Shown: piece after piece, positions 3,315 through 20,213 of the stretch
How the letters are laid out: the number at the start of each line of letters is the position of its first letter
How positions within the stretch are numbered: the first letter of the stretch is position 1
From: an uncultured virus (IMG/VR IMGVR_UViG_3300030104_007230)
Lineage: Duplodnaviria > Heunggongvirae > Uroviricota > Caudoviricetes
IMG/VR virus record: IMGVR_UViG_3300030104_007230
Coordinates: 62,001 to 86,161 of that record
DNA: 24,161 nt
Reading direction: 5' to 3' (one strand)
The notes under the pieces: model-generated
Told to the model about the DNA's origin: nothing
Databases searched by the model: none
What the model saw: only the letters and a program-made list of their open reading frames with translations
Made by a program: the position numbers and the translations under genes

Positions 3315-4400
3315 TTACCCAATAGCAGGCGCTATAAGAGCAACTGGGGTAGACTCAGCAGCAGCTAAATCAAGAGGGAAGTTGTGAGCGTTACGCTCGT
3401 GCATTACTTCCATACCAAGGTTTGCTCTATTAAGAACATCTGCCCATGTTGGTACCACTTTTCCAGAAGAGTCAACAACTGATTGGTTAAAGTTAAATCC
3501 ATTCAAGTTGAAGGCCATGGTGCATATACCCATTGAGGTAAGCCAGACGCAAATAACAGGCCAAGAAGCAAGAAAGAAATGTAAACTACGAGAGTTGTTA
3601 AAGGAGGCGTATTGGAAGATAAGACGTCCGAAGTAGCCATGCGCTGCGACGATGTTGTATGTTTCTTCCTCTTGTCCGAATTTGTAGCCATAATTTTGGG
3701 AATCTAATCCTGTTGTTTCACGAATAAGTGAAGATGTAACAAGTGACCCATGCATAGCACTAAACAAAGCACCGCCAAACATACCCGCCACACCTGCCAT
3801 GTGGAATGGATGCATGAGGATATTATGTTCCGCCTGGAAGACAAACATAAAGTTGAACGTGCCTGAAATGCCGAGAGGCATACCGTCACTGAATGATCCT
3901 TGTCCGAAAGGATAGACGAGGAATACAGCAAAAGCGGCTGAGACTGGTGCGGAGTAAGCAACACAAATCCAAGGACGCATTCCTAGTCGATAACTAAGTT
4001 CCCATTGTCGTCCCATGTAAGCTGAGATACCGATGAGAAAGTGGAATATAACGAGTTGATATGGTCCACCGTTATACAACCACTCGTCGATGGTTGCAGC
4101 TTCCCAGATTGGGTAGAAGTGAAGACCGATTGCGTTCGAACTGGGAACAACGGCTCCTGAGATGATGTTGTTTCCATATAAAAAAGAACCTGCTACAGGT
4201 TCGCGAATACCGTCAATATCGACGGGTGGAGCAGCAATAAATGCCACGATGAAACAAGCTGCAGCTGTTAATAAGCAAGGAATCATAATGACTCCAAACC
4301 AACCTACATAGATGCGATTGTTTGTGGAAGTAGTCCACTCACAAAACTCGTCCCATCCTTGTAATAAACTGCCACTTCTTTTTAAAGAAGATGTTGTCAT
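3315..4400 (-). CDS. psbA: Photosystem II reaction centre protein D1
   Basis: 361 aa, unmistakable D1 ([43 protein letters not shown]). Gln at the 130-equivalent (MGRQWE). Intron-free. Confidence 0.99.
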
Positions 4401-15790: not shown

Positions 15791-17641
15791 TTAATGCGTT
15801 TCCATCCAATTCTGTCCAATTCTAGCTTCACCTGTCAAGGGACATTTTAAATTAAAATACTGACCTGATTTTTTAAATGAATCAATTGCAAGTTCTTTAA
15901 ATATTTCTGTATATTCAGGTCTAACAAGAGCTTGTACCTCATCATGAACATGAGCAACAAGTCCCCAATCTTTTCCAAAAGATAAATTAATTCTTTCCAT
16001 AGAATCATAAAGAATTGTTGTGGATTTTTTAACAGCAATAGCACCAGTTGATTGTAATAATTGGTTTAAAGCAGAATGTTTAGATCTTATTTGTAAATGT
16101 CTACCATCAATTCCTTTAAGATAACTTCTATCTCTTAAAGCAATTTCAATATTATCTTTTAGTTGTTTAATAGCAGGTAAGTTTCTATAGAAAGTATTTA
16201 TAGTTTCCTTACCTCTACGATATTGTTGATCTTCAGTTCCTTTAGGTAAAATAATTGATCCTGTTTTTTTACCTCCGCCACCATAAAGAATGCAATAAAT
16301 TAGCCGCTTACTGAGATCTCTAGTTGCTTTTTCTATAGGTTTATCATGTTCTTGTATACCAAATAAACATGCATTATGAAAATGAATATCACGCTCAGGA
16401 TTACTAACTAGAGCAGCATACTCACCGTCGTCGTAATAAGCTAACCAGTGGCCAAGTGCCCTAAGTTCTAGCCCAGAAGCATCTGCACCTACTAACTTCC
16501 ACCCCTTTGGAGCATAGAAGAGAGCACGGCACTCAGCACCATAAGGATGACCAACACTTGGAATTTGCCCAGTATTGGGACGTTTGTGTGCGCAGCGTCC
16601 CGAAATTGCCGCGTTGGTAACAACTTCACCATGTATCTTGCCATCGTGGTATCGATCACAGTGTTTAAGCCACGCTTCTTTGCCTTCCGCAATTTGACCT
16701 ATCCTTTTATTAAGAAGTTGATATTCAGCTAATAGTTTAGCTTCAGGATATTTAGTACCTAATTTATTTAAAACATCATCATCTACTTTTGGTGAGCCTT
16801 TTTCTGTCTTTTCAAAAGTAATTTCAGGATATTTTTCTTTAAGTCTTTCAGAAGTTTGTTGCCTTGAAGCTGGATTAAAATTGGTAACTTTTGTTTTTAA
16901 TTGTTTACCAGTTTTTTCTGACCATCTTTCTAATGAGATAGGAGGAAAAGTTTTTTGAAGTGATTCTTCTAACTCAGCACGTTTAGCTTTTAAATCATTA
17001 ACTAAAGCATAAGCAGCTTTTGAATTAAAAGGAAAACCAAATCTCTCTTGTAGAGAAATAACATGGGCAAATTCATGTTCTAAAAGTAAAGAACGTTTGT
17101 CCATTTTTTGAGTAAGAAAATATTCATATAATTTATGGGTAACAATTGTATCTTGTTCACAATATTCCTGCATACTTATAGTCCATTTTTCCCATACATC
17201 TTCTACATCAGTTTCTTTTTTTGTTTCTTCAGTGAAAGCTATTTTTTTAGTATTAAGCCTTTCACCCCAAGCGGCTAAAGAATGTCTACCTTTATATTTA
17301 GGTTCTATATGTGCCCATCTAGAATAATCAAACGGATCTAGTTCAGGTGCCCAGAGACGACTAGCAACTAATGTATCAAAGACTTTGCAGCTTCTTTTTA
17401 ATTTAAAAATTTTAGGACATATCTTTTCTAAGACAGGAATATCATACTTTATTACATTATGTCCAATTAATAAGTCTGCTGAATTAAGAATTTCAATTCC
17501 TTTAAGAATAGAAAGATATCCTTTTTGATCTGCGCAACTTATTATTTCATTATTTTCAATATTTCTTAAAACTAAAGAATGAATAGTTGTAACAGTATCT
17601 AATAGTCCGTTTGTTTCTAAGTCAAAAATGAATGCTTTCAT
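15791..17641 (-). CDS. polA: DNA polymerase family A (T7-type; 3'-5' exonuclease plus polymerase, no 5' nuclease)
   Basis: Exo I FDLETNG, Exo II GHNVIKYD, HSLAAWG, Exo III YCEQD; motif A ADASGLELR; motif B RDLSKRLIYCILYG (Tyr at the 762-equivalent); motif C VHDEVQ. Confidence 0.96.
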   Translation of the reverse strand: MKAFIFDLETNGLLDTVTTIHSLVLRNIENNEIISCADQKGYLSILKGIEILNSADLLIGHNVIKYDIPVLEKICPKIFKLKRSCKVFDTLVASRLWAPELDPFDYSRWAHIEPKYKGRHSLAAWGERLNTKKIAFTEETKKETDVEDVWEKWTISMQEYCEQDTIVTHKLYEYFLTQKMDKRSLLLEHEFAHVISLQERFGFPFNSKAAYALVNDLKAKRAELEESLQKTFPPISLERWSEKTGKQLKTKVTNFNPASRQQTSERLKEKYPEITFEKTEKGSPKVDDDVLNKLGTKYPEAKLLAEYQLLNKRIGQIAEGKEAWLKHCDRYHDGKIHGEVVTNAAISGRCAHKRPNTGQIPSVGHPYGAECRALFYAPKGWKLVGADASGLELRALGHWLAYYDDGEYAALVSNPERDIHFHNACLFGIQEHDKPIEKATRDLSKRLIYCILYGGGGKKTGSIILPKGTEDQQYRRGKETINTFYRNLPAIKQLKDNIEIALRDRSYLKGIDGRHLQIRSKHSALNQLLQSTGAIAVKKSTTILYDSMERINLSFGKDWGLVAHVHDEVQALVRPEYTEIFKELAIDSFKKSGQYFNLKCPLTGEARIGQNWMETH

Positions 17642-17895: not shown

Positions 17896-18163
17896 CTTTA
17901 TTAGGTAGTTTCTGCATAATATAAATATCTAAGGCAATATGTAATAAAGAAGGAGCCATTGAAAGAGCTTTCTGAGGTAAGCCTCCAAAAAAACTTTCTA
18001 ATTTATCATTCAAATCACTTCTTTCTAATTCACGGTATTCAACCGCAAACATCTGTGCTAAACCTAATAGAAAGTCTTCTAAATCTTCATCTTGATTTTT
18101 AAGACGTTCAACCAGTTCCCATAATTCAGGGTCTGCTTGAATCATCTGAATTAATTCATTCAT
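17882..18163 (-). CDS. Hypothetical acidic helical protein
   Basis: 93 aa; overlaps the downstream gene in operon fashion. Confidence 0.7.
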   Translation of the reverse strand: MNELIQMIQADPELWELVERLKNQDEDLEDFLLGLAQMFAVEYRELERSDLNDKLESFFGGLPQKALSMAPSLLHIALDIYIMQKLPNKGDME

Positions 18164-18164
18164 A

Positions 18165-18713
18165 ATGAGACAACGAATACGCCGTCAGCTTATCAGTACT
18201 AAATTTAAACTCAATAAAAAGTTATGCAAACTCTTTATTGATCCTTGGTATACCTATGAAAAAGATTTCTGGGTATGGAATGTAGGTTTTGCAATAGGAA
18301 GATCAAATCGTCAGCTTAATGATTGGTATAACCAAAGAAAAAATAAAAGAGCAAATGCTCTTAGAAAAAAGATGAGTGGTCCAGGAGATTACAGATCTTT
18401 TTATCAAGCATGGAGAAGAATTTTAAAATTAAGATGGCAATTGCCTCCTGGAGATAGTCTTATGATTGATTGCACGGGAGCGTATCCAGAACAACAATAT
18501 AAAGTTTATAAATTTTTAACAGATTCTAAACACAGGCAACACCCTGATTGGTCTTGGAGAGAAGAGTTAAAACAAATTTATTGGACAAGACCTCCTTCTA
18601 GAATCCATCCTGCATGGAAAAAAGGGATAATCATTCCAAAACTTCCAAAAGATCTTTATGGATCAGTAACATCTAAAAATTATTCAGACTCTTTCTATGT
18701 TTCCTTAAAATAA
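18165..18713 (+). CDS. Hypothetical basic, Trp-rich protein
   Basis: 182-aa ORF, too long to be chance in this AT-rich sequence; no competing minus-strand ORF. Confidence 0.75.
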   Translation: MRQRIRRQLISTKFKLNKKLCKLFIDPWYTYEKDFWVWNVGFAIGRSNRQLNDWYNQRKNKRANALRKKMSGPGDYRSFYQAWRRILKLRWQLPPGDSLMIDCTGAYPEQQYKVYKFLTDSKHRQHPDWSWREELKQIYWTRPPSRIHPAWKKGIIIPKLPKDLYGSVTSKNYSDSFYVSLK

Positions 18714-18860
18714 TTAATTTTCTTGAGACCAGATAGAAGCTGCTATAAAAACTAAATTAATAATAGCTAAAATTCCTGCAGGTAAAGAAGGAAAGATCAA
18801 AAAAGAAATGGTAAATGTTATCCAAACAATGAAAATTGTTAAGCTATTTTTTGTTGACAT
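18714..18860 (-). CDS. 48-aa two-TM hydrophobic protein (start revised to MSTKNS)
   Basis: MSTKNSLTIFIVWITFTISFLIFPSLPAGILAIINLVFIAASIWSQEN. The track's longer N-terminus runs through the structured-RNA candidate. Confidence 0.55.
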   Translation of the reverse strand: MSTKNSLTIFIVWITFTISFLIFPSLPAGILAIINLVFIAASIWSQEN

Positions 18861-18874
18861 AGTTAAAATAAATG

Positions 18875-18996
18875 AGGGAAGGCGAAGAAGAACAGCGTCA
18901 ACCTTTCCTAAAGAGGGAGCCATTGTTTTTGTTGTTTCCGGTGGCTGGTAAGGAAGCCCCTATTCAGTAAAGAAATTTTGAGTAGGGGACCCCTCT
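18875..18996 (+). ncRNA. Candidate novel structured ncRNA: 5' hairpin plus three-way junction
   Basis: P1 AGGGAAGG/CCTTTCCT; P2 AGAGGG/CCCTCT; P3 AGCCATTG/CGGTGGCT; P4 CCCCTATTCAG/TTGAGTAGGGG. Five G-U pairs, all valid only on the plus strand. TAAAAT at 18864-18869 lies just upstream. Confidence 0.6.
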
Positions 18997-19109
18997 AGTA
19001 TTTTTAATATATTTTTATAATCATTTTTTTCTTGTTCAGAAAATTCATATTGCATTTCATCTAAACAAAAACGAATTAATGAAACTTCTTGAGGTTTAAA
19101 TTCTTTCAT
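18960..19109 (-). CDS. 49-aa hypothetical protein, not in ORF track (MKEFKPQEVSLIRFCLDEMQYEFSEQEKNDYKNILKILEGSPTQNFFTE)
   Basis: Translated by hand. Its 3' end overlaps the ncRNA candidate antisense by 37 nt. Confidence 0.5.
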   Translation of the reverse strand: MKEFKPQEVSLIRFCLDEMQYEFSEQEKNDYKNILKILEGSPTQNFFTE

Positions 19110-19165
19110 AATAATGGTATTCTTCAATACATGTAGAATTAATTTTAATTTAGAGTTTGCTTTGC

Positions 19166-19363
19166 ATGACTTGTAAAAAACATCAAATCAAATCAAGTAG
19201 ATATTACCTGTTCTGGGGGATTATGGCTGCCAGTGTTGTGGCAGGACAAATCTATGTTGGCACAGGCTATCGTGAAATGAATAAAACTCTTAAAGAATTT
19301 ATTAATTATTCTTTTTTAAAAGATAAACATCAACCGTTTTTGTTATTAACTCATAAGCCTTAA
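19166..19363 (+). CDS. Small single-TM protein of a Prochlorococcus-type family
   Basis: KSSRYYLFWGIMAASVVAGQIYVGTGYREM resembles small Prochlorococcus/phage membrane proteins. TAGAAT box upstream; overlaps the convergent ArdC-like gene by 62 nt. Confidence 0.7.
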   Translation: MTCKKHQIKSSRYYLFWGIMAASVVAGQIYVGTGYREMNKTLKEFINYSFLKDKHQPFLLLTHKP

Positions 19364-20213
19364 AGATACGATCACCTGACTTAGTAATTTCTTCTACGAT
19401 GTCATCTGTAGCTGTGTTGTGATGAACGATATATTGAAAAGTACGCTCACCCAGATCAATATTGTAATGAGAGCATACCAAGTAAGCAACTGATTCTGCT
19501 TCAAGCTCTTTAATAGATCCTGGAGTTTGTCTCCTATATTCGTCACTATTGTGCAAAATAGCGTGGCCAAGTTCATGAGACATAACACTGACCTGGGTAG
19601 CAACATTAAGTCCTTCAACCAGTCTGATTTCTTTTGCTTCTTCACCTGTAAAACAACAACAACCTAAAGCTCCTTCCATTTGTCCTTTATAAACTTCTGT
19701 TTGAACTTCAATTTTACGATTGATAGCTACTTGGCATAAGCCTTTAAAAAGATCAGGAGAAGCAATATCTTCTAATTCGTCCATCATATTCGATGTATCA
19801 GGCTTAGGAATAGGTTCACCTTCAGTCTGGTGGTGATCAAAGACATGAGCTGTCTTAAATCGATAAGGTCTTTTAATAGGTTTACCTTCATCATTTAATA
19901 AAGCATTACCATTGTCATCAGTAACAGTTGTCATAACAGGAGCAAGAATATGAATACTTTTTTCGCCTTTTTTAACTGTACGTTTAAATTCGTTTTTCCA
20001 TTTATGGAAACCAGCAACTAAAGGACTAAAGCCATAGCCACGTTTTTCTTGTTGCAATGCAATTAAAAAACGATTATTGAAACTGTAATGATGAATTTTT
20101 CTCATTACATTGAGAAAGCCTGCCCAATCCTTATCATCAAGAATTTTTTGAACACCATCCTTTAGAGATCCCAGAAGTTCTTCTGGAATCTTTGATTTTG
20201 TTTTAGTAGACAT
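19302..20213 (-). CDS. ArdC-like protein: N-terminal ssDNA-binding domain plus HExxH metallopeptidase-like (IrrE/MPTase) domain
   Basis: HHYSFNNRFLIALQ..VAGFHKWK...RTVKKGEKSIHILAP..VFD..QTEG (ArdC-N); HELGHAILH..ELEAESVAYLVC. Confidence 0.85.
   Translation of the reverse strand: MSTKTKSKIPEELLGSLKDGVQKILDDKDWAGFLNVMRKIHHYSFNNRFLIALQQEKRGYGFSPLVAGFHKWKNEFKRTVKKGEKSIHILAPVMTTVTDDNGNALLNDEGKPIKRPYRFKTAHVFDHHQTEGEPIPKPDTSNMMDELEDIASPDLFKGLCQVAINRKIEVQTEVYKGQMEGALGCCCFTGEEAKEIRLVEGLNVATQVSVMSHELGHAILHNSDEYRRQTPGSIKELEAESVAYLVCSHYNIDLGERTFQYIVHHNTATDDIVEEITKSGDRIFKAYELITKTVDVYLLKKNN

Follow-up and report, generated by a model that had tools for sequence, protein, structure and literature searches.

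The stretch of DNA analysed here (24,161 nt, hereafter the window) is the final 24 kb, positions 62,001 to 86,161, of the 86,161-bp virus record IMGVR_UViG_3300030104_007230. The record has a G+C content of 34.7% and encodes a terminase, portal-like and head proteins, tail fibres and a primase. It also carries psbA, which specifies a full-length photosystem II D1 protein (phrog_182, E 2e-194), and the virus is therefore a cyanophage. In protein comparisons no cultured phage has a polymerase more than 44.8% identical to its family-A DNA polymerase (polA), so the lineage is an uncultured one; for the polymerase of a group-2 contig, the best cultured match reached 45.8% identity. Between polA and a gene for an ArdC-N/M78-like protein, in a cluster of mostly minus-strand genes, lies a structured RNA specified by the plus strand, with a single copy in the 86-kb record (Table 1). 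This element is a genuine gene for a folded, strongly conserved RNA of about 120 bases, and it occurs in uncultured viruses that infect marine and freshwater cyanobacteria. No tRNA or tmRNA genes were detected by ARAGORN in the window or in the whole record.

The initial annotation of this DNA, made from the letters alone, had drawn four plus-strand stems here, and modelling with ViennaRNA returned the same structure. The minimum free energy (MFE) and centroid folds of nt 18875–18996 are identical and consist of exactly P1 to P4 (−43.7 kcal/mol, z −3.09), and none of 200 dinucleotide shuffles was as stable. The minus strand folds to −29.8 kcal/mol (z −0.52), a value equalled by 66 of 200 shuffles. 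The GC-rich island in AT-rich DNA that had drawn attention to the site is also evident, with a G+C fraction of 0.42–0.45 across nt 18850–18999 against 0.19–0.30 on the flanks. A covariance model (R1), constructed from 21 sequences and containing the four nested stems only (a pseudoknot between the P1 and P3 loops was left out), matches the window at nt 18872–18998 with 101 bits (E 5e-24).

Searches for related viral loci returned 80 with the polymerase gene and 14 with the ArdC-like gene, while the 182-aa protein encoded on the plus strand upstream of the RNA returned nothing. The element was found by nhmmer in 42 of the loci retrieved with these two genes, always on the strand matching the plus strand of the window and 1.3–1.8 kb upstream of the polymerase gene. 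By R1, the RNA is present in all 31 loci with a polymerase at least 60% identical to that of the window and in none of the 49 (some with short flanks) where polymerase identity is 43% or less. Pattern searches extended the family considerably. A degenerate pattern applied to viral contigs gave at least 32 R1 matches among the 100 loci listed, many of them in unrelated gene contexts, and a tighter pattern gave at least 118 metagenome loci, with 98 of the 100 examined (L325–L342 left out) being true members, so the RNA is abundant. The homolog collection suggested in the initial annotation thus amounts to at least 128 distinct sequences from viral and metagenome contigs. R1 matches are 103–129 nt long, and pairwise identities in an alignment of 40 of the sequences (A3) have a median of 57% and fall no lower than 41%. 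When the tighter pattern was run over 596 Gb of species-representative genomes, which is the only scan that covered cyanobacterial genomes and is a strict one, five places were hit. Three were true, all on short contigs of metagenome-assembled genomes (MAGs), and their neighbours are of phage type (transaldolase, HNH endonuclease, phage polA). The RNA is restricted to phage-type contigs. Among cultured phages, BLASTn of window nt 18100–19400 gave no match, BLASTn of family member L289 gave only chance matches of 19–24 nt, and the genomes of S-EIV1 and S-SBP1 contain no copy of the RNA. S-H68, also considered as a cultured relative, proved to be a fragment of a myovirus.

Covariation was assessed in A3, which derives from 69 matched viral loci after repeats of the same contig were dropped, and in A4, an alignment of 94 distinct metagenome sequences. 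Standard pairs fill 95.2% of the cells in A3 and 94.0% in A4 (67.0% and 63.5% after shuffling), counts that are inflated for P1–P4, since the alignments were fitted to the nested stems, while the pseudoknot is exempt from this effect. Pairs changed on both sides number 36 of 39 in A3 and 37 of 39 in A4. The covariation scores are 0.736 and 0.741, compared with 0.215 and 0.199 after shuffling (0 of 500 shuffles reach the observed value) and with 0.10–0.16 and 0.10–0.14 when partners are slid by 1–3 columns. In both alignments, two-sided changes occur at all eight pairs of P1 and all five modelled pairs of P2, and the eight pairs of P3 are all compensatory with 96–98% of cells paired; for P4 the figures are 10 of 11 pairs in A3 and 11 of 11 in A4. 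P4 also has a tandem wobble, with UG in 63 and GU in 50 of the 94 sequences. The best-supported helix of the family is the pseudoknot, which the initial annotation had suspected in the same register. It is paired in 99.6% of cells in A3 and 99.7% in A4, five of its seven pairs are compensatory and the other two are invariant (C-G and G-U); at one position the members carry CG (13), AU (12), UA (10) or GC (5). All the stems and the pseudoknot therefore covary. Unpaired nucleotides that are invariant in the 40- and 94-sequence alignments comprise GNAGAAGAAC and G.CA in the P1 loop, UUUUU...G.UUC in the P3 loop and, within the junction, G-UAA-Y-UGA, whose G-UAA part is near-invariant.

The strand of the RNA can be read from its wobble pairs. 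In A3, 169 cells are G-U or U-G and 21 are A-C or C-A; in A4 the counts are 406 and 45 (about 8–9 to 1), which means that the RNA is read from the plus strand of the window, as five such pairs had suggested initially. These figures, and the failure of the minus strand to fold better than its shuffles, also bear on the alternative that there is no RNA gene and that the conservation reflects a DNA element (an origin or operator), a minus-strand RNA or minus-strand ORFs. In its favour, the element is enclosed by the ArdC-like gene and polA of the minus-strand cluster, two minus-strand ORFs reach into it (a 55-aa ORF with its 3' end, and an ORF for a transmembrane (TM) peptide with what may be an N-terminal extension), and the −10 box also resembles TATAAT when read on the opposite strand. 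The ORFs do not account for the sequence, however. Homologs of the TM-peptide occur in nine related loci and lie wholly outside the RNA, and its extension to nt 18923, which had been named at the outset as a possible explanation, is not conserved; for the 55-aa ORF, whose overlap is with P4 and P2, just one locus has a homolog. Loop and linker lengths in the RNA vary by non-multiples of three, and the RNA shares the orientation of its neighbours in other phages. This alternative is already largely refuted and must be considered very improbable.

Comparison with known families placed the RNA close to, but outside, one of them. The window gave no match to Rfam at gathering thresholds and nothing relevant at E ≤ 10 in nt 18700–19150, and 20 further member loci (100.6 kb) gave only tRNAs at gathering. 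No riboswitch or self-cleaving ribozyme model of Rfam 15 matched at gathering in the window or the 20 loci, or at E ≤ 10 in the window and 20 members. The model of CyVA-1 (RF02965), an orphan Rfam motif typed as 'sRNA', gave no match to the window or the whole 86-kb record, and no member reached its 41.4-bit cut-off, but sub-threshold scores of 19.5–26.3 bits were obtained on 6 of the 20 other members, all on P1. The CyVA-1 consensus has an outer stem around two hairpins with loops gGUUUUaCCGUUuugu (first) and GAAGGAGAaCGACGUCA (second). P1 aligns to the second hairpin (consensus positions 39–67) with nearly every loop base identical, and the P1 loop of the window, CGAAGAAGAACAGCGUCAA, fits the GAAGGAGAaCGACGUCA feature. 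The novelty proposed in the initial annotation therefore stands in so far as no Rfam family matches at threshold, but not for the two kissing hairpins, which are the CyVA-1 module in swapped order. A true CyVA-1 was available as a positive control at nt 387–476 of L506, a 63.5-kb viral contig (54.6 bits), and its two loops pair at 7 of 7 positions. When R1 was applied to L506, a P1-like hairpin was found at nt 420–463 (25.6 bits), and before it, at nt 395–419, a P3-like one (16.3 bits, E 3e-4) corresponding to R1 positions 49–73 (the 5' side of P2/P3 plus the loop). The CyVA-1 copy of L506 is preceded by GTTAAAATAA (with a TAAAAT box), as in the window. The RNA is therefore a rearranged relative of CyVA-1, with the same kissing-hairpin module and different wiring.

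Pattern searches for further CyVA-1 copies were largely unproductive. A strict pattern with the canonical CyVA-1 hairpin order gave 0 matches in viral contigs, and a looser one gave 56 loci with one true CyVA-1 (L506). A pattern of the loops alone gave 116 loci; L368 was the single real one, and it belongs to the family described here rather than to CyVA-1. This divergent member (nt 589–697, 63 bits) shares the P1-loop sequence GAAGGAGAAC with CyVA-1, its junction reads UUAAAAU instead of GGUAAYUGA, and it may be intermediate between the two architectures. Literature searches returned no description of the RNA, although the 8,495 unnamed IMG/VR candidates of PMC10690425, whose alignments were not compared, may include it.

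The boundaries of the presumptive gene were examined at both ends. A TANNNT hexamer ending 13–17 nt before the AGAAG anchor occurs in 114 of the 125 members with 60 nt of upstream sequence, compared with 12–20 of 125 in four control windows. TATTAT is the commonest form (44 members), and the TAAAAT of the window ends at −17. The TAAAAT box from which the initial annotation had deduced a promoter is thus part of a family-wide element at a fixed position, and because of this fixed distance transcription should start at P1. At the other end, 15 metagenome members have a tRNA gene whose start lies −2 to +5 nt beyond the final P2 base; 14 of these genes are for tRNA-Leu(UAA) and one for tRNA-Asn. 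Examples with tRNA-Leu(UAA) at 0–5 nt include L272, L267, L236 and L235, and in L272 (nt 409–1257) the RNA heads a cluster of five tRNA genes (Leu, Arg, Met, Thr, Pro). Since the tRNA abuts P2, cleavage by RNase P would create the 3' end of the RNA, and the functional unit would be bounded by P1 and P2. Both features are consistent with the stand-alone gene proposed initially: a −10 box at a fixed position and probable discrete 3' ends at the abutting tRNAs.

Table 1. Positions of the structured RNA, its parts and the neighbouring genes within the window.
Feature	Position	Strand	Remark
Structured RNA, ~122 nt	18875..18996	+	first P1 base to last P2 base; covariance model R1
−10-like hexamer TAAAAT (TANNNT type)	18864..18869	+	predicted start ~7 nt downstream, first P1 bases
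P1 hairpin	18875..18909	+	stem 18875-82/18902-09, 19-nt loop; MFE fold
P1 loop	18875..18909	+	within the hairpin; near-invariant GAAGAAGAAC (18884-93) plus ..GUCA
Pseudoknot 5' strand AACAGCG, in P1 loop	18891..18897	+	partner 18930-36
P2 5' strand	18912..18917	+	closes three-way junction; partner 18991-96
P3 hairpin	18918..18946	+	stem 18918-25/18939-46
P3 loop UUUUUGUUGUUUC	18918..18946	+	within the hairpin; invariant U5 run and G..UUC
Pseudoknot 3' strand UGUUGUU, in P3 loop	18930..18936	+	2 of 7 pairs G-U in the window
Junction J3/4 GGUAAGGAAG (GGTAAGGAAG)	18947..18956	+	family consensus (U)GGUAAYUGA
P4 hairpin	18957..18988	+	stem 18957-67/18978-88; variable loop; conserved tandem U-G/G-U step
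P2 3' strand	18991..18996	+	likely 3' boundary of mature RNA; tRNA starts here in 15 relatives
Terminator-like alternative hairpin	18983..19007	+	UAGGGG-ACC-CCUCUA then U-rich tail GUAUUUUUAA; consensus match only
Family-A DNA polymerase (polA)	15791..17641	−	
psbA	3315..4400	−	
Gene for 182-aa protein (phrog_38455)	18165..18713	+	
ORF for 48-aa TM-peptide	18714..18860	−	
Small ORF (phrog_2000)	19157..19363	+	
Gene for ArdC-N/M78-like protein	19302..20213	−	

The preferred interpretation, to which a probability of roughly 55% is assigned, is that the element is a stand-alone gene of uncultured cyanophages whose product, a compact and stable non-coding RNA of about 115–125 nt, acts in trans. 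Host RNA polymerase would start at the −10 (TANNNT) promoter and produce a transcript that begins at P1 as its own unit. The RNA folds into the 5' hairpin P1 followed by the three-way junction of P2, P3 and P4, and a 7-bp kissing helix locks the P1 loop onto the P3 loop, gathering the invariant single-stranded GAAGAAG, U5 and GUAAYUGA segments into one core. Its 3' end would form where P2 ends, through RNase P cleavage next to an abutting tRNA and through a terminator or other trimming elsewhere, and its compactness would make it stable. Through the conserved core it could then act in trans, in the course of infection, on a partner that may be a protein, another RNA or a small molecule. Strand, fold, promoter position and the P1-to-P2 limits come from the sequence comparisons, while transcription by the host as a separate unit, RNase P maturation, stability and action in trans are inferred.

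Gene context bears on whether the RNA is independent of the genes around it. The flanking genes vary and include ArdC-like, polA, talC, petF, hli, psbA, thyX, integrase, HNH and tRNA genes. In the lineage of the window the RNA is antisense to most of its neighbours, as described initially, but this part of the description does not extend to the family, since elsewhere the RNA is usually co-oriented with them. A crude count of reading frames in the 450 nt downstream of 96 members gave 30 co-oriented, 28 opposite, 27 ambiguous, 9 tRNA and 2 with none. Variable neighbours in variable orientation favour an independent gene over a dedicated leader.

A number of observations weigh against the stand-alone gene, in addition to the inflated pairing counts for P1–P4 already mentioned. 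Close co-oriented genes follow the RNA in many members (petF at about +125), and a DUF4278-like ORF lies 86–101 nt downstream in 19 of the 100 members whose flanks are long enough. The true CyVA-1 of L506 lies directly before an AAGGAG Shine-Dalgarno sequence and an ATG, and it looks like a 5' leader in that phage. A hairpin with a T-run occurs within 100 nt in just 14 of 123 members, leaving the 3' end undefined for most, and the expression, ends and stability of the RNA are predictions.

Several of these points would fit a cis-acting 5' leader, either a riboswitch or a polymerase-modifying (put-like) element for the downstream genes, which might sense nitrogen status or glutamine. The RNA always comes immediately after the promoter, and, as is typical of aptamers, a large number of its unpaired nucleotides are invariant. 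In the window, a small alternative hairpin followed by a U-run can form from the 3' half of P4 plus the 3' strand of P2, with a possible choice between terminator and anti-terminator; the terminator-like hairpin (nt 18983–97) is the sole such site in nt 18600–19300, where shuffled sequences give an expected 0.4. The DUF4278 ORFs add to this picture, and so does the position of the CyVA-1 copy in L506. A leader is less easily reconciled with the 15 members in which a tRNA begins 0–5 nt after P2, leaving no room for an expression platform, or with downstream genes that are about as often opposite as co-oriented. In some relatives (e.g., L018) a hairpin and T-run follow 23–90 nt downstream of the RNA, and there are relatives with a terminator right behind it and then convergent genes. 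All 19 DUF4278 ORFs have a GTA-N8-TAC box of their own between the RNA and the ORF, and no riboswitch model, those for glutamine included, matched at E ≤ 10 in the window and 20 members. A leader function is thus possible but unlikely.

The DUF4278 ORFs (46–55 aa; L012, L013, L014, L009, L233, L252 and 13 others) specify IF17-like proteins with a 'YRG' repeat, assigned to the domain with Pfam E-values of 6e-6 to 5e-5, around the cut-off. In all 19 cases the GTA-N8-TAC box, which matches the NtcA-site consensus, is found 22–58 nt before the ATG. In L013, L233 and L012 it is followed by a TATAGT-like, −10-like hexamer (read by eye), an arrangement that suggests a separate promoter for the ORF. 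PMC6212724 describes DUF4278 as marking IF17-like proteins, whose genes in cyanobacteria are under glutamine riboswitches. The phage ORFs may represent a nitrogen-regulated auxiliary gene of cyanophages.

Other genes close to the RNA in the window were also compared. The 182-aa protein encoded upstream of and co-oriented with the RNA, inside the minus-strand cluster, is basic and Trp-rich (phrog_38455, E 8.5e-35), and its gene keeps this antisense placement in 22 related loci, all of a single lineage. In T7-like cyanopodoviruses (S-SBP1 gp36, S-RIP2, KBS-P-1A) homologs are encoded right after tail tubular protein B. It was considered as a general RNA-binding partner and rejected, being limited to the one lineage here and present without the RNA in the T7-like cyanopodoviruses. 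The hydrophobic, single-TM-like peptide mentioned above has 48 aa, and its ATG is 4 nt from the −10 box of the RNA. On the other side, the PHROG-matched ORF 160 nt downstream of the RNA (phrog_2000, E 3e-20) coincides with a local G+C peak and has a homolog in L002 only; about 60 nt of it are shared with the 3' end of the ArdC-like gene, which is convergent. The ArdC-like gene encodes a 303-aa protein with an ArdC N-terminal domain (E 9e-11) and an IrrE/M78-type metallopeptidase motif (E 7e-6), which is kept at 53–57% identity in 14 related contigs.

The form of the RNA also raises the question of catalysis. Its size, its pseudoknotted three-way junction and its approximately 30 invariant unpaired nucleotides resemble those of small ribozymes, and it occurs beside tRNA and homing-endonuclease genes, so that the kissing-loop core could be the active site of a self-cleaving or other catalytic RNA. 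No Rfam ribozyme family matched, even at E ≤ 10, and no conserved scissile position can be identified from the sequence alone; a catalytic role is considered improbable. The pseudoknot itself could be read in another way, because covariation does not separate pairing in cis from pairing in trans, and the loops might pair between molecules to give dimers, rings or cages. The RNA of phage phi29 (pRNA) assembles through loop-loop pairs, the same has been reported for ROOL and GOLLD, and large ornate phage RNAs likewise adjoin tRNA genes. Moreover, the same two loops appear in either order in CyVA-1 and in this RNA, a change easily tolerated in trans. The linker between P1 and P2, which can be as short as 1 nt, and loops of 17 and 13 nt are nonetheless compatible with an intramolecular kiss, and the Rfam model of phi29 pRNA gave no match. 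Assembly between molecules is held to be no less improbable than catalysis.

A bolder proposal, regarded as quite unlikely, is that the core common to this RNA and CyVA-1 is a ligand-binding or catalytic centre, and hence that the two represent a new riboswitch or ribozyme class rewired by a natural non-circular permutation. The cyanophage RNA would then be a free-standing sensor, possibly of nitrogen status, a guess that derives from the recurrent IF17-like DUF4278 neighbour with its GTA-N8-TAC box.

Whichever role applies, cyanophages control a large share of the ocean's primary producers, and their non-coding RNAs are hardly known. The structural support for this one is unusually clean, including a pseudoknot proven by covariation, and it is built like the core of a riboswitch or ribozyme. 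The abutting tRNA-Leu genes offer a simple maturation route via RNase P. Discovery of a ligand, partner or activity would bring to light a new means by which Prochlorococcus and Synechococcus phages manipulate infection.

Among known systems, the rnaC (species 1) and rnaD (species 2) RNAs of phage T4 are likewise small structured phage RNAs beside tRNA genes, with which they are presumably co-matured. They lie 3' of a tRNA, whereas the cyanophage RNA lies 5' of one where one is present, and most members of its family have no tRNA neighbour. Homology was rejected, as the best R1 score over T4 nt 69500–72500, with filters off, was 3 bits (E 1.4). Glutamine riboswitches (glnA RNA, RF01739, and Downstream-peptide, RF01704), known from cyanobacteria and cyanophages, likewise contain a pseudoknot and conserved purine-rich strands of the GAAG type. 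They also share a position upstream of DUF4278 genes (PMC6212724). Their architecture differs, however, and 81 of the 100 members of the present family lack a DUF4278 ORF. The pRNA of phi29 (RF00044), another phage RNA, resembles the cyanophage RNA in size, also contains a three-way junction, and shows covariation between two pairing loops. Its loops pair between molecules, and it is a component of the packaging motor in small protein-primed phages, while the phage studied here has polA and a record of 86 kb, its RNA has no Rfam match to pRNA and lies at a position unrelated to the packaging genes.

CyVA-1 remains the closest comparison. Both RNAs have a hairpin with the loop GAAGRAGAAC-NNN-GUCA and another with the U-rich loop UUUUU-NNN-GUU, the variable triplets being complementary. 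The U-loop hairpin comes first in CyVA-1, whereas the GAAG-loop hairpin comes first in the RNA described here. In CyVA-1 a single outer stem surrounds both hairpins within about 77 nt (an average of 78 nt is given by Weinberg et al. 2017, PMC5737381), while in the present RNA, of about 115–125 nt, P2 encloses only the U-loop hairpin, together with the extra P4 and the conserved junction GGUAAYUGA, and the GAAG-loop hairpin lies outside it. As the core survives the swap in hairpin order, its function would rest on the three-dimensional fold and not on the order of co-transcriptional folding. The orphan CyVA-1 is thereby linked to a second architecture in which the hairpins are reversed, and the resulting two independent scaffolds around one conserved core help to work out which of the core nucleotides matter.

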